Origin: Parcubacteria group bacterium | GTDB lineage: Bacteria; Patescibacteriota; Minisyncoccia; 2-02-FULL-40-12 | Direction of reading: 5' to 3' | DNA: 64,000 bases | Assembly (NCBI GenBank): GCA_016186395.1 | Contig: JACPLU010000006.1 | Coordinates: 7,948 to 71,947 of the forward strand | In this document: in pieces, positions 3,034 to 17,878 of the stretch | Layout of the letters: the number at the start of each line of letters is the position of its first letter | Position numbering within the stretch: the first letter of the stretch is position 1 | The notes under the pieces: generated by a model | What the model was told of the DNA's origin: nothing | What the model saw: only the letters and a program-made list of their open reading frames with translations | Databases searched by the model: none | Program-made: the position numbers and the translations under genes

Positions 3034-3694
3034 AAGTTTTTTCGGAATGAATTGTGTTTTTAATATTATCCAAACTCTCCCAGACAGAACCACTATTCAA
3101 ATCTATTTTATCTAAACCAATCAAAGGAATGATTTTTTGCCAAAGATAACTAAATAAGCCAATTTTACATATGTTACCAATCAATAAAATCAAAAGGCCA
3201 TATTGAATGTGATTCAATTTTATAAATCCGATACCTAAATGAAAAAAAGTTGGTATGAGCCCGGAAATGAATACCCCCAAATAATCTTGGTCAAAAACAA
3301 CAACTTTTAAGTTTTTACCAATTATTGACAAGAGGCCGATGGCCAAAATGAGAGAAGCAGAGGCTACTCCAGCTATTTTCAACCGTTTTTTGAAAATACC
3401 AGGCAAACTATAGAATAATCGTTTTTCCTTGTTCAAATACCTTACAAAAAGATAACCTACCCCCACAAACATTAAACTAATAACAACGGCCGGAAATTTA
3501 TGCAAGGTTTTACCCAAAAAACTGCCCCAGAAACCATAGTACCAAAATAACATTTCACATGTTCCCGAAATTGAACTAAAAATAAAAGCCTTAAAAACAC
3601 TAAAACGAGCTATTTGCCAAGCACATGATCCTAATTCTGCGTTTATCAAAGTGACACCAATAGGAATCAAATAACGTTTACTGAATTTACGCAT
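3032..3694 (-). CDS. polytopic membrane protein, hypothetical
   Basis: 220 aa with several hydrophobic segments. Confidence 0.5.
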   Translation of the reverse strand: MRKFSKRYLIPIGVTLINAELGSCAWQIARFSVFKAFIFSSISGTCEMLFWYYGFWGSFLGKTLHKFPAVVISLMFVGVGYLFVRYLNKEKRLFYSLPGIFKKRLKIAGVASASLILAIGLLSIIGKNLKVVVFDQDYLGVFISGLIPTFFHLGIGFIKLNHIQYGLLILLIGNICKIGLFSYLWQKIIPLIGLDKIDLNSGSVWESLDNIKNTIHSEKT

Positions 3695-3758: not shown

Positions 3759-5555
3759 TTAATTAGTCACCAATTCTTTCTTCAACAACTCCTCTGCAAC
3801 TTGTGGATTGGCTTTGCCTTTGGTTTCTTTCATTACTTGACCGACAAGAAACTTCAAGGACTCCTGCTTACCTTTTTTATAATCTTCAACTGCTCTTTGA
3901 TTATTGGCAATAACATTTTTAACCGCGATTGTAAGCTCCCCCGAATCTGAAACCTGACCCAGATCTTTTTCTTTCATAATTTGTTCGGGATGCAATCCGG
4001 TTTCAGTCATTTCTTTTAATATAACCTTTGTGGCCGAAGAAGAAAGTTTTTTGTGGAAAAACATAACCATTAACTCGGCAAAGGCTTCCGGTTCAACTTT
4101 TATACCTGACAAATCTTCCAATTCGCTGGCATCTTTCATATTGAACAACACCGGAAATTCAGTAATTATAAAATTGGCCGCAAGCGCATGAAGCCTGCCC
4201 AGCAAATGTTTTTCATCAGAGAATTCTTTGACACTTCCACTTTTCAAATGTTCAACTTTAGCTTCTGAATCAAGTTCTGTGGCAACTTTTTCGTAATAAT
4301 CGCCCAAATGTTTCGCTTTGGTAAAAATTTCAATATCCCGCTCAGGCAGATTATACTGCTTTTTAAATCTATCACGCCTTTGCTGAGGTAGTTCTGGCAG
4401 ACTGACTAATAAACCGTCCACATCAATCTTAGTTGGCGGCACCCCCCCCTTTCTTTGAGAATCTTTTTCAATATTTGAGAATTCATTGGAAATAACCGCT
4501 ACGCTTTCATCACTAGCTTCTTTGAGAAGTTCACGAGAGAAAGAGGGGGGTCCTCGCCTTTGTAGCTTTTCGCTTATGCTCAAAAACAAAGGCGGGAGGT
4601 CCGGCTCCGGGAAATATCTATAATCGTGAGCTTCTTCTTTTGATCTTTGACTAACCGTTACACCTCTTACTTCGTCCCAACCTCTGGTTTCTTGAATAAC
4701 CCGTTCGCCACTATCTAAAAGCTCGCTTTGACGTTTAATTTCATATTCCACCGCTTGCATTGCTACTTTTATAGAGTTCAAATTTTTAATCTCCACTTTT
4801 GTACCTAATTTTTGATTTTTGATTTTTGATTTTTGATTTGAAGAAGTTAATATTTCGCTAAGCGAAATATTAACTTCGACACGCATTTGACCCTTTTCCA
4901 TATTTGCATCAGAAACGTTCAGATAACGTAAAATTAACTGAAATTCCTCGGCAAATTTTTTAACCTCGTTACCATTCTCTAAATCCGGTCTTGTTACTAA
5001 TTCCATTAACGGAACGCCGGCACGATTATAATCGACCAGCGAAGCTGGTCGCCCCGAGCCTGTCGAGAGGCTTTCATGCAAAAGCCTGCCCGCATCTTCT
5101 TCTAAATGAATGCGCTCAATTCTGATGCGCTTAACGTCTAAAGGCGAACGACTAAAGCCAGAGCTATCAATAGCTTTAGTCTTTAGACTTTCGTTGTTAG
5201 CCTTAGTCTTTAGACCTTGGTCATTAGACAGTATCTCTAAATAGCCGTCACGACATAACGGTTTTTGATACTGACTTATTTGATAGCCCTTTGGTAAATC
5301 AGGGTAAAAGTAGTTCTTTCTTTCAAAAAAAGATTCGTCTGCAATCTGGCAATGCAATGCCAAGCCAGCTTGAATCACTTTTTTCACAGCCTCCTGGTTT
5401 ATGACCGGCAATGTCCCTGGATGACCCATACAAATGGGACAAACATTAATATTTGGATGCTTTTCATCCGAATCATTTAAAGAATCGCAAAACATTTTAG
5501 TCTTGGTTTTAAGTTCAGCATGAATCTCCAGGCCGATTGTTGGTTTATAATTCAA
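3759..5555 (-). CDS. gatB: Asp/Glu-tRNA amidotransferase subunit B, expanded to 598 aa by four in-frame insertions
   Basis: N-terminus MNYKPTIGLEIHAEL...CPICMGHPGTLPVIN, plus RIERIHLEEDAGR and DYRYFPEPDLPP motifs. Confidence 0.9.
   Translation of the reverse strand: MNYKPTIGLEIHAELKTKTKMFCDSLNDSDEKHPNINVCPICMGHPGTLPVINQEAVKKVIQAGLALHCQIADESFFERKNYFYPDLPKGYQISQYQKPLCRDGYLEILSNDQGLKTKANNESLKTKAIDSSGFSRSPLDVKRIRIERIHLEEDAGRLLHESLSTGSGRPASLVDYNRAGVPLMELVTRPDLENGNEVKKFAEEFQLILRYLNVSDANMEKGQMRVEVNISLSEILTSSNQKSKIKNQKLGTKVEIKNLNSIKVAMQAVEYEIKRQSELLDSGERVIQETRGWDEVRGVTVSQRSKEEAHDYRYFPEPDLPPLFLSISEKLQRRGPPSFSRELLKEASDESVAVISNEFSNIEKDSQRKGGVPPTKIDVDGLLVSLPELPQQRRDRFKKQYNLPERDIEIFTKAKHLGDYYEKVATELDSEAKVEHLKSGSVKEFSDEKHLLGRLHALAANFIITEFPVLFNMKDASELEDLSGIKVEPEAFAELMVMFFHKKLSSSATKVILKEMTETGLHPEQIMKEKDLGQVSDSGELTIAVKNVIANNQRAVEDYKKGKQESLKFLVGQVMKETKGKANPQVAEELLKKELVTN
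5170..5232. repeat. cluster of short palindromic repeat units (TAGTCTTTAGAC) lying in-frame inside gatB
   Basis: tagtctttagac at 5176-5187, cttagtctttagacc at 5201-5215, cattagac at 5221-5228. On the minus strand these encode LKTKANNESLKTKA. Confidence 0.7.
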
Positions 5556-5582
5556 GGCTCAATGCTTAACGACAAAAGACCA

Positions 5583-5636
5583 AAGTTTAGATATTATTTT
5601 CTAGCCTTAGTCCATAGACTTTAAGCTGTAGTCAAC
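5583..5636. repeat. palindromic repeat-unit cluster, intergenic (gatB/thyX-like)
   Basis: ctagccttagtccatagactttaagctgtagtc, variants of the TAGTCTTTAGACTA unit. Confidence 0.6.
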
Positions 5637-5660
5637 TATTAATTTATCATGATTTTAAAT

Positions 5661-5687
5661 AACAAAAAAGCCCGGTGAACCGAGCTA
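5661..5687 (-). terminator. intrinsic terminator of the thyX-like gene
   Basis: On the minus strand: gctcggttcaccgggc hairpin followed by tttttt. Confidence 0.5.
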
Positions 5688-12516: not shown

Positions 12517-14622
12517 CTATATATCCAAATTCCTGACTTGTTTTGCGTAAGCCTGAATAAACTTCTTTCTGGGCAAAACTTCGTTACCCATTAAAACATC
12601 AAAAATTCTGTCTGCTTCTTCAGCATCTTCCATCGTAACTTGCAAAAGCACTCTCCTTGCCGGATCCATGGTTGTCTCCCAAAGTTCTTCCGAGTTCATC
12701 TCTCCAAGACCCTTATATCGTTGGACCGTAACACCCGGCAATATCTCTTTGGCTTCCTCTTCTGTAGACCCCCCTTCAACCCCATTAGCTTTTTCTTCTT
12801 CTGATTCAATCTCTAAGGTCGCTTCTTTTTCTTTTTTTGCAGACTTTTTCATACTAATCGTCTTAGCTATTTCAGAAAGAATCTTTTCTTTCTCTTGATC
12901 ATTGTATGCGTAATGCGCCTGACCACTTTTTTGAATTTTATAAAGCGGGGGTTGAGCAATATATAAGTGGCCCTGCTCAATAATTGATTTAAAATATCTA
13001 AAAAACAGAGTTAAATAAAGAGTTCTAATATGAGAACCATCCACATCTGCATCTGCCATTAAAATTAACTTGTGATACCTTAACTTAGACAAATCAAACT
13101 CTTCTCCAATGGCCGTGCCCAAAGCAATAATCAGAGCCCTGACTTTATCTGAAGCTAATAATTTATCAATCCTAGTTCTTTCAACATTTAATATTTTGCC
13201 AAATAAAGGAAGAATCGCTTGAGTGCGTCTATCTCTAGCTTGCTTGCTTGACCCACCGGCACTGTCGCCCTCTACAATAAATAATTCTGATTCAGATGCG
13301 TCACGGCTTGAACAATCAGCTAATTTGCCGGGTAAAGCTAATCCATCCATAGCTCCTTTTCTTATAACCGTATCGCGGGCCGCTTTTGCCGCAACCCGTG
13401 CTTTAGATGCCAAAATAACTTTTTCCATTATCTCTTTGGCATCTTGGGGACTTCGTTCCAGCCAATCAGCTAATTCTTCAGCCAATACTCCATCTACTGC
13501 AGTCCTTGCTTCCGGATTTCCAAGTTTTGCCTTTGTCTGACCCTCAAATTGAAGTTCCTTGTTTTTTATCTTTACAGAAATTACTGCGGTCAAACCTTCT
13601 CTTACATCTTCTCCAGTTAAGTTTTCATCCTTCTCCTTCAAATAGCTGTTTTTACGAGCGTAGTCATTTAAAGTCCTAGTAAGAGCGGTTCTAAAACCAG
13701 TCAAATGCATACCACCTTCAAGATTGTAAATATTATTTGCGAAACTTAATTCTTTACTTTGAAACTCTTCTGTGTACTGCATGGCTATCTCAACAAATAT
13801 GCCTTCTTTTTCTTTAGCAGCATAAAAAATCCCGCGATTTTTAACTTCTTCGTTTCTATTAAGATACCCGACATAAGAAACTATCCCACCCTCAAAGTAA
13901 AATCCATACGTAGGCATATTCTTAGATTTACTTCCCTGTTTTTGTACTTTTTCCGAATCAATCTCTATCGGACTCCTCTCATCTGTCACTAATATATGAA
14001 TACCTTTTGTAAGATAGGCTTGCTGGCGGAGATGATCTAAAACTTTATGAAAATCAAAACTAATCTCTTTGAATATTTCCGGGTCTGGTTCAAAGGTTAT
14101 AATTGTTCCTCTGGGAAAATCACTCGGCGCTTTACCAACTTTTTTAACATCTTTCTTTGCTTTACCGCGTTCATACTCTTGTTCATACAAAAAACCGTCG
14201 CGAGAGACTTCGGCTTTTAACCAAACTGATAAAGCATTGACTACCGAAACTCCAACACCATGTAAACCACCGGAAACCTTATACGATTCGCCGCCGAATT
14301 TACCTCCGGCATGTAAAGTGGTCATAACCGTTTCCAGTGCTGATTTTTTAGTTTGCGCATGTTTCTCAACTGGAATACCACGACCATTATCTTTCACTCG
14401 AACTTTGTTTCCCGGTAAAAGAGCAATTTCAATATTCTTGGCATATCCGGCCATTGCCTCGTCGAGCGAATTGTCAAAAACCTCCCATATTAAATGATGC
14501 AAACCGTCTACGCCGGTTGAACCAATATACATACCCGGTCTTTTTCTGACCGGTTCCAAACCCTCTAATACATAAATATCTTTAGCAGTATATGATCCTT
14601 CTTGTTTTACCAATTTTGTCAT
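12517..14622 (-). CDS. gyrB: DNA gyrase subunit B
   Basis: LEGLEPVRKRPGMYIGSTG, GLHHLIWEVFDNSLDEAMAGY, the TOPRIM motif EGDSAGGS and the C-terminal QRYKGLGEM. Confidence 0.95.
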   Translation of the reverse strand: MTKLVKQEGSYTAKDIYVLEGLEPVRKRPGMYIGSTGVDGLHHLIWEVFDNSLDEAMAGYAKNIEIALLPGNKVRVKDNGRGIPVEKHAQTKKSALETVMTTLHAGGKFGGESYKVSGGLHGVGVSVVNALSVWLKAEVSRDGFLYEQEYERGKAKKDVKKVGKAPSDFPRGTIITFEPDPEIFKEISFDFHKVLDHLRQQAYLTKGIHILVTDERSPIEIDSEKVQKQGSKSKNMPTYGFYFEGGIVSYVGYLNRNEEVKNRGIFYAAKEKEGIFVEIAMQYTEEFQSKELSFANNIYNLEGGMHLTGFRTALTRTLNDYARKNSYLKEKDENLTGEDVREGLTAVISVKIKNKELQFEGQTKAKLGNPEARTAVDGVLAEELADWLERSPQDAKEIMEKVILASKARVAAKAARDTVIRKGAMDGLALPGKLADCSSRDASESELFIVEGDSAGGSSKQARDRRTQAILPLFGKILNVERTRIDKLLASDKVRALIIALGTAIGEEFDLSKLRYHKLILMADADVDGSHIRTLYLTLFFRYFKSIIEQGHLYIAQPPLYKIQKSGQAHYAYNDQEKEKILSEIAKTISMKKSAKKEKEATLEIESEEEKANGVEGGSTEEEAKEILPGVTVQRYKGLGEMNSEELWETTMDPARRVLLQVTMEDAEEADRIFDVLMGNEVLPRKKFIQAYAKQVRNLDI

Positions 14623-14640
14623 AAATTATTTAAAATGCTC

Positions 14641-14667
14641 AAGGTCTAAAGACAAACATCTAAAGCT
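14641..14667. repeat. palindromic repeat units (gyrB/RT junction)
   Basis: aaggtctaaagacaaacatctaaagct. Confidence 0.45.
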
Positions 14668-14715
14668 GGGGTGTTTAAGCAGAAAAATGGCCTCAAAATC
14701 TAGTTTTTTATGAGG

Positions 14716-15696
14716 TCATTTTGAGTCATTATTACCCTTTAATTTTACCAGATTTTGTATATAAAAACAATGCTTAAAGCATAGTCTTGAGTGGATAATT
14801 TTAAGTTTTAATTTAATCGTTTCTATACTTTTATTTATTTCCACTCTTTTTAACATCCTTCTCTTAGTGGCTGTTCTCAACACTCTATGGTCTGAAAAGT
14901 GTACCCAACCAAGAAAATCAATCCCGGAATTTAAGGTTTTAATTGATACTTTATGAGGATGTAGCTGTAACCCAAGCCTATTTTGTAAAAAACTACTAAC
15001 TTGTGGCAATAAATCTAAAAGCCAATTCTTATTTTGTGAAAGAAAAACAAAATCATCAGCATAACGAATATAGTATTTAACTTTTAATTTGTGTTTTACA
15101 AACTGATCAAATTCATTCATATAGATATTTACTAATAATTGAGAAGTTAGATTACCAAGAGGCAGACCAATACCAAGATGAATTAAATAAAAACTAGAAA
15201 TAATTTCATTTAATAACTCTATAATATTTGGGTTTGAAATATATTTTTTTAAAATAGCAAGTAGAACTTGATGATCAATATTGGCAAAGAACTTTTTAAT
15301 ATCGCATTTTAAAACCCAGACTGTTTTTGTATTATTTTTTGATTCTTTATAAGAAAAATCTCTAAATCTATTAATTGCTTTATGAGTTCCTTTATTCAAT
15401 CTGGATGAATATGAGTCAGCAATAAATGTTTTGTCGAAAAATGGATAAAGTTGACGATAAATTGCGTGATGAAGTAATCTGTCTCTTACTTTAGCTTTAT
15501 GAATGCTTCTTGGTTTTGGATCAGAGATATTAAATGCTTGATACTCTCCGTGCTTGTAGATATGATTAGTTAAATCGTGATGTAAAGATAAAATATTATC
15601 CATTAGATTTAACTGAAATTCTTGAACATCTTTTCTTTTTCTTTTGCCTTTGATAAATTCTTTCCAGGCTTCAAGTAAATTTTCCAAACTAACCAT
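14716..15696 (-). CDS. diversity-generating retroelement (DGR) reverse transcriptase
   Basis: RT motifs are all present: LENLLEAWKEFIKGKRKRKDVQEFQLNL at the N-terminus, LKCDIKKFFANIDH, LPLGNLTSQLLVNIYMNEFD (the DGR-type [IL]GxxxSQ where group II introns have QGxxxSP), and YIRYADDFVFL. At 326 aa it has no maturase or endonuclease domain. Confidence 0.85.
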   Translation of the reverse strand: MVSLENLLEAWKEFIKGKRKRKDVQEFQLNLMDNILSLHHDLTNHIYKHGEYQAFNISDPKPRSIHKAKVRDRLLHHAIYRQLYPFFDKTFIADSYSSRLNKGTHKAINRFRDFSYKESKNNTKTVWVLKCDIKKFFANIDHQVLLAILKKYISNPNIIELLNEIISSFYLIHLGIGLPLGNLTSQLLVNIYMNEFDQFVKHKLKVKYYIRYADDFVFLSQNKNWLLDLLPQVSSFLQNRLGLQLHPHKVSIKTLNSGIDFLGWVHFSDHRVLRTATKRRMLKRVEINKSIETIKLKLKIIHSRLCFKHCFYIQNLVKLKGNNDSK

Positions 15697-15764
15697 TTCT
15701 TCGAAACTATGACAAAATTCAATTCTTTTACGCCCCCCCCCCCAGCAGCAGTAGCAGCACCTCT

Positions 15765-16112
15765 TTGCCTATTCTTCAGAAACTGATTGTGGTTTACAAA
15801 ATTTGGCATGGTTATTTACCTAGATTCTCAAAAGATCATCGCTATACACTAGGTTTTAAAATTGACTCGCTCTTTGTTGAGGTAATCGAAACCCTCCATC
15901 AAGCACAGTATATTTTTTGGAGACAAAAACAATCGTATTTGACTAAAGCTTCATCAAGACTAGATACGCTAAAATTCTTTCTCCAAATACTTTGGGAAAT
16001 AAACGGTATTGAAAATAAAAAGTATATTCATCTTTCTAAGCATATAGAAGAAATCGGAAAAATGCTTGGCGGATGGATAAAAGAAACAAATTTAAAAAAC
16101 CAAACCCTCTAA
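15765..16112 (+). CDS. avd: DGR accessory variability determinant (Avd)-like four-helix-bundle protein, on the opposite strand from the RT, TR and target
   Basis: 115 aa. YLPRFSKDHRYTLGFKIDSLFVEVIETL and the C-terminal IGKMLGGWIKETNLKN resemble Bordetella-phage bAvd (YPIAQSIPRKHGVAREMFLK... / VGRILGSWIARVNRKG). The template repeat starts 24 nt past its stop. Confidence 0.65.
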   Translation: MPILQKLIVVYKIWHGYLPRFSKDHRYTLGFKIDSLFVEVIETLHQAQYIFWRQKQSYLTKASSRLDTLKFFLQILWEINGIENKKYIHLSKHIEEIGKMLGGWIKETNLKNQTL

Positions 16113-16135
16113 TAAAGAGGGTGGAAATAAGCCAG

Positions 16136-16262
16136 TTGCGAGGAACCACGAGACGATCATTGGAGTTCCAATCATTGTCGAGCCTATTGAAGTTCAAGAT
16201 CCATTCGTCATCGTTCCAGTTCAGATACGGAACGTACCAATTGCCGTTCGAGTCCTGCCATT
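16136..16262 (-). repeat. DGR template repeat (TR), sense strand = minus
   Basis: 127 bp. It matches 16553-16679 at 104 of 127 positions; all 23 mismatches are at plus-strand T (sense-strand A) in this copy. Confidence 0.85.
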
Positions 16263-16472
16263 ACGTACAAAATGCCATCTGTACCACTGTCCTTCGAATT
16301 ATCTTAGGACTGTATCTTATTGGGGATCTTTAAATCCTCTAGCATTCTGAACCAAGTAGCTTTATTTTTTTAGAAATCTGAAAAGATTTCGGAATTGGAT
16401 CGCTTAAAACTTGTTTAGTCGTAAGCTAATTGATCTACTTTCCAAATCATAGTATATCAAAAATATAAAAAA

Positions 16473-16506
16473 ATGCCCGACAGGTTTAACAAACCCTGTC
16501 GGGCAT
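16473..16506 (-). promoter_or_regulatory. perfect 12-bp stem hairpin about 45 nt downstream of the VR/target stop codon (DGR retrohoming hairpin candidate)
   Basis: atgcccgacagg-tttaacaaac-cctgtcgggcat. Confidence 0.55.
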
Positions 16507-16548
16507 AGAGCCAAGGGATCCAAGAACCAAGAGTTCAAGGATCCTTAA

Positions 16549-17097
16549 CTACTTGCGAGGAACCACGAGACGATCACGGGAGTGCCAAGCACGGCCGAGC
16601 CTATAGAAGCGCAAGACCCATCCGCCAACGCGCCAGTGCAGATACGGAACGTACCAACGGCCGTCCGAGCCCTGCCAAATGGTGCCCGGAAAAACCAGGT
16701 AGTACTTCCGAAGTTCTTTTGAAATCTTGCTTTGGTTTTCCAAAAGCCACTCGGCATCTTCCTGGCCGTAGTTAGCGTTAAACTCTCTCCTGGCTCGAAG
16801 TACCATCTCTTCGCCGTTAACATAGGTCTCACCCTCTTTCAGGAACGAGATCCCATCGACGGCAGAGAAAATACGATGCGGAACACTCTCTAGAAGCGTC
16901 CAGCCTTCTTTGCGCATGTCACGCTTGAAGGTGGCCACGATAGGGCCGAAGCGACCCTCAATGGCAAACTGGAGATGTACCTTGAGCTGAAAGGGGTCAA
17001 ATGGGTAACCGCTCGGCTGCCTCATCTGACGCTTTATCTCCCAGAGTTGACCGTCCAACTCTTGGTAGAGATCGCCTGCGACCATGATATTGGCCAT
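16549..17097 (-). CDS. DGR target protein (182 aa) carrying the variable repeat in its last ~43 codons; no signal peptide
   Basis: The C-terminus TIWQGSDGRWYVPYLHWRVGGWVLRFYRLGRAWHSRDRLVVPRK is encoded by the VR. The VR abuts the TAG stop. Confidence 0.8.
   Translation of the reverse strand: MANIMVAGDLYQELDGQLWEIKRQMRQPSGYPFDPFQLKVHLQFAIEGRFGPIVATFKRDMRKEGWTLLESVPHRIFSAVDGISFLKEGETYVNGEEMVLRARREFNANYGQEDAEWLLENQSKISKELRKYYLVFPGTIWQGSDGRWYVPYLHWRVGGWVLRFYRLGRAWHSRDRLVVPRK
16553..16679 (-). repeat. DGR variable repeat (VR)
   Basis: Counterpart of the TR. The first 24 nt (ttgcgaggaaccacgagacgatca), next to the stop codon, are invariant and GC-rich, consistent with an IMH-like element. Confidence 0.85.
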
Positions 17098-17171
17098 GAC
17101 GATTTTCCTCCGTTAAACAAATTTCCTATGAAATTTGTTTACTTGCTGTTTGATTTTGGTTCAGCCTTTGC

Positions 17172-17222
17172 TTTGCCACAGCAGAAAGTGGCCCGCATAA
17201 AGTCACTTTCTGCTGTGGCAAA
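17172..17222. promoter_or_regulatory. perfect 19-bp inverted repeat hairpin between the DGR target start and the upstream gene
   Basis: tttgccacagcagaaagtg - gcccgcataaagt - cactttctgctgtggcaaa. Confidence 0.5.
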
Positions 17223-17326
17223 ATTATCATAAAATCGCTTTATAAATGTACTATTTCTATACCACAATTATACCATATATAACATAACTACGCAAGGTTT
17301 TAAAAAATGGCTTAAAAAGAGTAATT

Positions 17327-17878
17327 TTACGACAATTTTCGAGCTAAAACTTTCTCGTGATTTGCATCAAAATCATATCTATAAATTGCCACGACTTTAC
17401 GAACCGGTTCGCCATCTTTGGTGCCATAAGTATAATGATGTTTAATTGGCTGACTAACTTTATAATAGGTACTTACTGCCTCATCACTGCCAATGTAAAA
17501 AGCTGCATGGTTTCTTTCTTCGTCACCTTCCTCCTGAAATTTCTTTGTTTCATACACAAGCACATCACCAGGTTCTGGTTTCCCTGCTTTTTCCCAATCG
17601 CTTGATTCTAAATCCCGCACAACCTCATAAACACTCGCATGCAGATCGTGAATGAGTTTGAACATAAATAAAATGCGCGAAACAAAAACCGCGCACGATC
17701 GCCTTCCGTTTTGTAAAATATCGGTCTTTTCTCCATCAACTTCAGCATATAAATTCTGAAATAAATTTGCGCCAACACTTTTTTTAATCACCTCAATATA
17801 ACTTTCTTTTATCAAAAGTTTTATACTTTTCTTAGGCGTACTTAATTCCTGAACTGGATTGTTTGGAGAATCACTCAT
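17327..17878 (-). CDS. hypothetical protein, possible papain-like (NlpC/P60-type) Cys/His hydrolase
   Basis: RSCAVFVSRIL (Cys) and NHAAFYIG (His) resemble the DCSG and HVGIY catalytic blocks. The match is weak. Confidence 0.35.
   Translation of the reverse strand: MSDSPNNPVQELSTPKKSIKLLIKESYIEVIKKSVGANLFQNLYAEVDGEKTDILQNGRRSCAVFVSRILFMFKLIHDLHASVYEVVRDLESSDWEKAGKPEPGDVLVYETKKFQEEGDEERNHAAFYIGSDEAVSTYYKVSQPIKHHYTYGTKDGEPVRKVVAIYRYDFDANHEKVLARKLS

Follow-up and report, generated by a model that had tools for sequence, protein, structure and literature searches.

A diversity-generating retroelement in a Parcubacteria genome

We analyzed a 64-kb stretch of DNA (the window; all coordinates are window positions unless a contig is named) from a Parcubacteria group bacterium, assembly GCA_016186395.1, contig JACPLU010000006.1. 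It carries a diversity-generating retroelement (DGR) in which the genes for the reverse transcriptase (RT) and the accessory variability determinant (avd) diverge from a 68-nt spacer (15697-15764) that forms their shared control region. Within this spacer lies a simple-sequence repeat, C11 on the avd strand and G11 on the RT strand (15733-15743), and this tract is a conserved, strand-specific, length-variable hallmark of the DGR family to which the locus belongs.

The RT gene occupies 14716-15696 on the minus strand and encodes 326 aa from an ATG at 15696. Its product matches RVT_1 (E 2e-25) and contains LGNLTSQ and YADD, fitting the combination of [ILV]GxxxSQ and YxDD that we take to be the signature of DGR-clade RTs, and it is a 100% match to a protein of a Parcubacteria-group metagenome-assembled genome (MAG). 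The avd gene (15765-16112, plus strand) begins with TTG and encodes 115 aa. PF22296 (bAvd) matches the protein with E 9e-15 and 55.5 bits (cut-off 40) over profile positions 3-106 of 107. The NCBIfam model for DGR Avd, NF033474, scores E 2e-22 and 79.3 bits, marginally under its cut-off of 80, and aligns residues 1-106 with the full length of the profile (1-104 of 104). A first-pass annotation made from the sequence alone had placed avd opposite to the RT and had named an avd-like open reading frame (ORF) on the minus strand as evidence that would speak against this; none was found between 15697 and 16135, where the sole minus-strand ORF (15609-15809) has no family match. The RT, Avd, C11 tract, repeats and target gene that it listed all lie where it had put them.

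On the RT side of the tract a 36-nt segment (15697-15732, minus strand) reads KRIEFCHSFEE in the RT frame and corresponds to an N-terminal stretch that is translated in other clades. On the avd side an AGC/AGT-rich linker of 21 nt (15744-15764, plus strand) leads to the avd start and is 12 nt longer than the 9-nt linker of the clade relatives of the window. The cassette is flanked by gyrB-like and other housekeeping-type ORFs and is therefore chromosomal and not obviously phage-borne. An Rfam scan of 14500-17400 (E up to 1) returned only chance matches to miRNA and lncRNA families.

The template repeat (TR, 16136-16259) and the variable repeat (VR, 16553-16676) are direct repeats on the minus strand, and the VR codes for the C-terminal ~42 residues of the target protein. 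Their 121-nt core contains 21 mismatches, all of which (21/21) fall at TR adenines, so that 21 of the 31 adenines are affected; TR codons at the varied positions are rich in Asn and Asp. The last 23 nt, GATCGTCTCGTGGTTCCTCGCAA, are identical in the TR (16136-16158) and the VR, divergence begins immediately beyond them, and this shared GC-rich 3’ end looks as an initiation of mutagenic homing (IMH) type segment would be expected to look. The TR/VR pattern is consistent with ongoing mutagenic retrohoming at this locus. No further copies of the VR or TR were found when the window was searched for them.

The target gene (16549-17097, minus strand) encodes a soluble protein of 182 aa without a leader. 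No hydrophobic N-terminal or transmembrane-like segment is present (the highest 19-aa Kyte-Doolittle window scores 0.9), so the earlier description of a small target that lacks a signal peptide is correct by hydropathy. It does not set the locus apart, however, as this is the norm in a target family of at least 150 proteins of 165-205 aa, all from Patescibacteria-type sources and all without a Pfam match or leader. The hypervariable columns of the family alignment coincide with the VR. Most cellular DGR targets carry a signal peptide or transmembrane segment (Roux et al. 2021, PMC8144416), so that a leaderless target is a minority type overall yet standard in this family. An AlphaFold2 model of the target (mean predicted local distance difference test score 88) shows a helical hairpin at the N-terminus and an alpha/beta domain at the C-terminus, and its best PDB matches are C-type-lectin-like domains, at weak significance (E 0.15-4).

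The layout is standard among related DGRs, with a terminator-like hairpin after the TR

For comparison we took 80 loci from the approximately 565 genome hits to the RT; their RTs are 62-73% identical to that of the window and all come from Patescibacteria-type MAGs. Counts for avd and the spacer use the 73 loci with enough upstream sequence, or 74 spacers with the window. In all 73 relatives avd is on the opposite strand and directly upstream of the RT gene, and the order target(VR)-TR-(avd)-RT, where parentheses denote the reverse strand, is found in 62/62 loci with a detectable repeat pair, the window included. In these 62 loci the VR precedes the TR on the RT strand by 360-730 nt, most often by 400-530, and at least 80% of TR/VR mismatches fall at TR adenines in 60 of them. 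Spacers of the relatives measure 27-187 nt, mostly 50-90.

The first-pass annotation regarded the locus as an atypical DGR, with avd on the opposite strand, a small target that would be cytoplasmic or exported by another route, and a TR-RT transcript running antisense to avd. The orientations and coordinates are as it described them, but the layout is the published norm for the candidate phyla radiation (CPR): the survey of Wu et al. (2018, PMC5758913) defines architecture B3 as TR-(avd)-RT and reports it for 90% of the DGRs of its CPR set. The window conforms to B3, with TR-(avd)-RT, a reversed avd and no other accessory gene. Set against that survey and the 73 of 73 relatives, the arrangement is ordinary, and a reversed avd should no longer be taken as odd.

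The antisense transcript is also improbable. A terminator scan placed a hairpin (16122-16104) followed by a T-run just past the TR, overlapping the avd stop (16094-16122 overall, minus strand); the TR itself ends 24-27 nt past that stop. The stem is 7 bp, contains GC pairs, begins 14 nt after the TR on the TR strand and is followed by TTGGTTTTTT. A hairpin with a T-run occurs at the same position in 59/72 loci, where the stem sequences differ while their complementarity is kept; a frequent form is CTCTCCC...GGGAGAG, TTTTGTTTTG, which is found with complementary variants. This element is probably an intrinsic terminator or the 3’ structure of a short TR RNA, although it could instead be a functional part of the DGR RNA. 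Because a conserved terminator-like hairpin and T-run follow the TR on its strand, a long antisense TR-RT transcript is unlikely. With the layout universal among relatives, this hairpin conserved, and the target one of a large family of small leaderless proteins, we consider the picture of an atypical locus very improbable.

A 12-bp GC-rich hairpin (16506-16473) followed by a T-run also lies about 40 nt past the target stop (16458-16506, minus strand); it is likely the terminator of the target gene, the hairpin seen downstream of the VR in some DGRs, or both. In many relatives the RT gene has its own -10-like box directly after the tract. Taken together, the simplest reading of these signals would have four transcription units: target, TR RNA, avd and RT.

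Contigs from different samples that encode an identical RT differ in clusters confined to the VR (L081-L092 and the groups P0090 and P0113), and such VR-only differences fit ongoing DGR activity in the populations of these relatives. One relative, L010, holds a second DGR on the same contig in canonical order, with the target at 4306-5148, avd at 5275-5676, then the TR, and the RT gene extending to 7064 (contig positions).

A G-tract is conserved in the spacer between avd and RT

A run of 6-14 G is present in 68/74 spacers (67/73 relatives and the window). Its length has a mode of 10-11, a mean of 10.0 and a standard deviation (SD) of 1.8, and the G's are on the RT strand in 68/68 cases. Three loci have a dinucleotide repeat at the same site instead, (GT)8 in L007, (GA)10 in L011 and (GT)10 in L040, and three further loci have no tract. 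In most loci the tract lies 5-12 nt from Avd codon 1; in the window the distance is 21 nt. Two tract-less loci, L025 and L059, keep A-biased TR/VR differences (16/16 and 10/14 at TR adenines, respectively), so that the core mechanism does not require the tract, which is accessory in the way expected of a regulator. Together, the reversed avd, the G-tract and the hairpin after the TR provide a practical marker of this DGR clade.

Such runs are rare elsewhere. The rest of the fetched loci, about 547 kb, contain two runs of 8 or more, both of them G10, both in L010 and both promoter-proximal. They lie at 3404-3413 and 5253-5262 of that contig: one is in a promoter before a secreted repeat protein and the target of the second DGR, and the other is 12 nt before the co-directional avd of the second DGR. 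Among 24 relatives of this second, canonical-architecture DGR, no such tract was found beside the RT gene. In the 64-kb window the next longest G/C run is C8 at 4442-4449 (plus strand), which sits inside a GatB-like ORF (3759-5555, minus strand), in frame as Gly-Gly.

Homopolymers are error-prone in sequencing and the tract of the window is available in just two assemblies, so a sequencing or assembly artefact, or a neutral by-product of mutation, had to be considered. An independent assembly (Logan SRR12113422; 1077 nt aligned at 99.2% identity) gives the same length of 11, and the tract recurs at the same place and on the same strand in 67/73 loci from many projects and assemblers, against two similar tracts in ~547 kb. 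The recurrence and the independent assembly rule out an artefact or a chance origin, leaving either a negligible prospect, and they answer the concern raised in the first-pass annotation that the homopolymer might be an assembly error. Its suspicion that the homopolymer mattered was well placed: the tract is a conserved repeat in the control region of the DGR enzymes, with a fixed strand and a variable length.

Tract length varies by one unit within populations

To follow the tract within populations, we grouped contigs of separate samples by exact identity of the encoded RT or target protein, which gave seven populations. One-unit differences in tract length, with near-identical flanks, were found in four of them: P0090 has G11 in three contigs and G10 in two; P0065 has G9 in five and G10 in two; P0067 has G9 in one and G10 in three; and P0113 has a (TG)n repeat whose two forms, in four and three contigs, are one unit apart. 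Since the repeat of P0113 is a dinucleotide, its variation is not a homopolymer-calling error. Outside the VR, the tract is among only 3-4 variable sites in alignments of 2-4 kb. The other three populations are uniform, with G8 in P0011 (three contigs), G12 in P0101 (five) and G9 in P0165 (nine).

A different explanation is that the tract has a fixed structural function and varies in length only as incidental noise, with selection holding it at about 10-11 units. It might then serve as a promoter spacer, as an element of the avd leader, or as a G-rich RNA or DNA element that is bound by RT or Avd or that blocks read-through. The narrow range of lengths (mean 10.0, SD 1.8), the strict orientation (G on the RT strand in 68/68) and the three monomorphic populations of seven agree with this explanation, as does the continued activity of tract-less loci, in which the tract is dispensable. 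Against it, (GT)n or (GA)n replaces the G-tract in three loci, which argues that repetitiveness matters and not G-specific chemistry, and dinucleotide replacements vary in length as well, as in P0113. Lengths also span 6-14 across loci, and one-unit variants coexist in 4/7 populations. We consider a purely structural role rather unlikely, though it deserves serious weight.

Several short-read contigs (L107-L110, L104 and L106) end 66-300 nt upstream of the RT start, at or just past the repeat on its avd side; heterogeneity of the tract or of the VR may break assemblies there. Among the identical-RT contigs L096-L102 a CCAGCT hexanucleotide is present or absent at alignment column 1825, downstream of the RT gene, and is a second length-variable repeat in that population.

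Promoter context and a proposed role for the tract

Promoter-like geometry is seen next to the tract in part of the family. The motif TANNNT begins exactly at the end of the tract in 19/68 loci, compared with a mean of 2.2 at other offsets. At offset 0-1 it occurs in 21 loci, and in 11 of these 21 an RT ATG or GTG follows exactly 7 nt later, which is the geometry of a -10 box predicted to drive a leaderless mRNA. In the 19 offset-0 loci TANNNT lies on average 17.5 nt from TGGYAA, which is the complement of avd codons 1-2, and the lengths of tract and flank partly compensate each other (rho -0.44; permutation p 0.03), in a subgroup that was picked post hoc; across all loci, tract length and flank length showed no correlation. 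L010 has a textbook promoter of this kind at another gene, TTGCCA-N8-G10-TATAAT-N6-ATG. A generic sigma-70 promoter scan gave 8 sites where 8.5 were expected, none of them in the spacer.

From these features we propose the following arrangement. The target gene would end at its own terminator, and the TR would be made as a short RNA ending at the hairpin and U-run before avd. Expression of avd and RT would proceed divergently from the short spacer. For RT the tract would be a promoter spacer that abuts the -10 box on its upstream side; for avd it would fall within the 5’ leader or ribosome-binding region, 5-21 nt ahead of the start codon. Slipped-strand mispairing would change its length, and the tract would thereby switch or dial the expression of RT and/or Avd stochastically, which in turn would set how frequently the target is hypermutated. 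The identity of the DGR, its layout, and the conservation, strand bias and length polymorphism of the repeat are direct observations, whereas an effect of the tract on expression, and the direction of that effect, are predicted from its position and variability. The first-pass annotation had suggested that a slippage-prone tract could gate either gene. That suggestion gains real support: the tract is conserved across the family and confined to one strand, dinucleotide repeats take its place in three loci, and its length varies by one unit within populations. The gating itself is a prediction.

A number of observations weigh against such a switch. Clear promoter geometry is found in about a quarter of the family only, and no single geometry fits every subclade. 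In the clade of the window the sequence G11-CG-TAAAAG makes a poor -10 box and the usual RT ATG is missing, and the tract of the window is 21 nt from the avd start, outside the 5-12 nt seen elsewhere. TGGYAA is a poor match to a -35 element, and both the subgroup and the spacing test were chosen after inspection of the data. Three of the seven populations are monomorphic (G8, G9 and G12), the two assemblies of the window lineage, the only two there are, both have 11, and short-read homopolymer lengths carry some error, from which the dinucleotide case is exempt. The narrow distribution of tract lengths could likewise mean a fixed structural requirement and not switching.

On balance, we read the locus as a chromosomal, recently active, Patescibacteria-type DGR of standard layout in which the spacer repeat is a switch or dial on RT and/or Avd expression, and we give this reading as a whole a probability of about 0.55. 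The more general proposition, that Patescibacteria DGRs carry a contingency switch in which a G/C (or GT/GA) repeat stochastically turns hypermutation on and off or dials it, is put forward more tentatively, at somewhat less than even odds. How DGR activity is controlled is poorly understood, and a cell that has obtained a useful variant needs a way to stop randomizing it. If the proposition is true, a slippage-prone repeat is a simple heritable and reversible answer that would bring two hypermutation mechanisms together at one locus: cells that diversify would always be present as a minority while the majority keep their current variant, amounting to second-order, heritable yet reversible control of evolvability. 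With under 1 kb between the repeat and the VR, tract length and VR diversity can be linked within single long reads.

Start codons and the possibility of translational frameshifting

Start codons need care in many members of this family. Most relatives have an RT ATG 33-36 nt upstream of the equivalent of M1 of the window, giving the N-terminus MKIQLxHxFED. The clade of the window (L003, L006, L008, L013, L050, L076, L081-L085 and L147-L155) is without that ATG, about 16 nt being missing. Its 11 upstream codons (RRIEFxHSFEE) remain in frame with mostly synonymous-type variation and no start codon upstream, and the ATG at 15696 occurs within the clade only in the window lineage. For Avd, codon 1 is TTG in 30 of the 56 relatives checked and TTA, CTN or ATH in the other 26 (L004, L010, L022, L030, L048, L072, L080 and 19 others); in only one of these 26 is there a canonical start between the tract and Avd codon 1. 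Gene callers disagree on the length of Avd (85 vs 114 aa) or overlook its gene entirely.

These irregularities suggest another role for the tract, that of a translational frameshift switch lying within coding sequence, with upstream starts fused to Avd (through poly-Pro) or to RT (through poly-Gly) at permissive tract lengths. In the window, avd would start at ATG 15709 and RT at ATG 15809, with 12 or 9 as the permissive length. A tract of 3n would bring both of these ATGs in frame, so that in the window clade the repeat might gate both proteins at once. The non-start codon 1 of Avd in 26/56 relatives, with a canonical start after the tract in one, and the coding appearance of the upstream RT codons in a clade without the usual ATG are in keeping with this. 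So is the finding that in 71/71 loci an ATG precedes the tract on the avd strand, its frame staying open as far as the tract. Stops are scarce in the antisense phase (6/287 codons vs 17/276 and 39/244 in the other phases) and the tract-to-RT ATG distance is 13, 16, 19 or 22 nt in 29/51 loci, but common descent and the overlap with RT coding sequence both confound phase statistics of this kind.

The tract lengths themselves do not follow the expectation. In-frame status is at or below chance, in 19/71 loci and in 1/8 alleles of the polymorphic populations (counting ATG starts only). Lengths in the window clade are 8, 10, 10, 10, 10/11, 11, 11 and 13, the member with 9 has a stop upstream, and no member of the clade with a 3n length has both ORFs in frame. 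VRs differ between samples also in populations without any in-frame allele, and the Avd family profile begins exactly at the TTG of the window. The tests bearing on frameshifting (upstream ATGs, alleles, stop phase and near-cognate starts) thus turned out, if anything, unfavourable, and we retain it as a minor and improbable alternative to control of expression through the spacer.

Relation to known DGRs and to phase-variable repeats

The closest known systems include the B3 DGRs of the CPR and “DGR clade 2”, which is restricted to Patescibacteria (Roux et al. 2021, PMC8144416). As the B3 survey (PMC5758913) describes them, B3 DGRs share with our locus the gene order and orientation, a single upstream target on the RT strand, Avd, A-to-N differences, a CPR host and a target without recognisable domain; in architecture there is no difference. 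They differ in what is reported: in that survey a spacer repeat goes unmentioned, the words promoter, homopolymer and intergenic do not occur, and a hairpin with T-run after the TR was not found in the parts consulted. A description of the spacer tract was likewise not found in the literature searched, whose coverage did not extend to the main CPR DGR paper, so that an earlier mention is possible.

The DGR of Bordetella phage BPP-1 (mtd-avd-TR-brt) likewise combines an RT and an Avd of the pentamer-type family with a TR/VR pair that is mutagenized specifically at adenines and shares an identical GC-rich 3’ segment, and it too has a hairpin past the VR. In BPP-1, however, all parts are co-directional, avd precedes the TR, and the DGR RNA includes the 3’ end of avd and the spacer before brt, whereas in the window avd is reversed between TR and RT, the TR has an apparent terminator of its own, and the control region contains a hypermutable repeat. 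In BPP-1 the protein diversified is a phage tail fibre, in the window a small soluble cellular protein.

Repeats that control expression by phase variation include the poly-C tract of opc, the poly-C tract of the Bordetella fim genes and the (TA)n of the divergent hifA/hifB promoter of Haemophilus influenzae. The spacer repeat resembles these in having a tract of about 8-14 units directly before a -10-like box, in a short control region, with one-unit variants coexisting. A promoter spacer of the porA or hif type would lie between recognisable -35 and -10 hexamers with a total spacing near 17 bp; the 19 offset-0 relatives come close to this, and the window clade and several other subclades do not fit it. 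The known systems control surface antigens of host-associated pathogens and their effect on expression has been shown experimentally; here the genes controlled would be hypermutation enzymes of uncultivated Patescibacteria and the effect is a prediction from sequence. In Neisseria meningitidis porA the repeat is a poly-G in the promoter and gives phase variation (PMC3639595). Contingency loci are recognised by a tract of some 7 units or longer that is placed in a promoter, a leader or the 5’ part of a coding region, by polymorphism of its length within a population, and by an effect of that length on the neighbouring genes that is reversible and frequent, which for the spacer repeat would be a prediction. 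The C11 of the window lies 21 nt from the avd start and 36 nt from the RT ATG. Polymorphism is found in the relatives (4/7 populations) and not in the window lineage, in which both assemblies have 11. The DGR and its layout are thus known in kind, and the length-variable spacer repeat is the feature for which no description was found in the literature searched; a regulatory role is the best-supported explanation of it, as an inference.

Additional observations on the target gene and its family

A perfect 19-bp inverted repeat with a 13-nt loop (TTTGCCACAGCAGAAAGTG / CACTTTCTGCTGTGGCAAA, 17172-17222) precedes the target start by about 75 nt on the minus strand and is not followed by a T-run. 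A paralog in the target family, P0214 (185 aa), is identical in at least 24 contigs (L137-L146) and adjoins an arginyl-tRNA synthetase gene; neither RT nor avd lies within 1.6 kb of it. This paralog may be an ancestor-like copy that is not diversified, or it may serve as a remote target.

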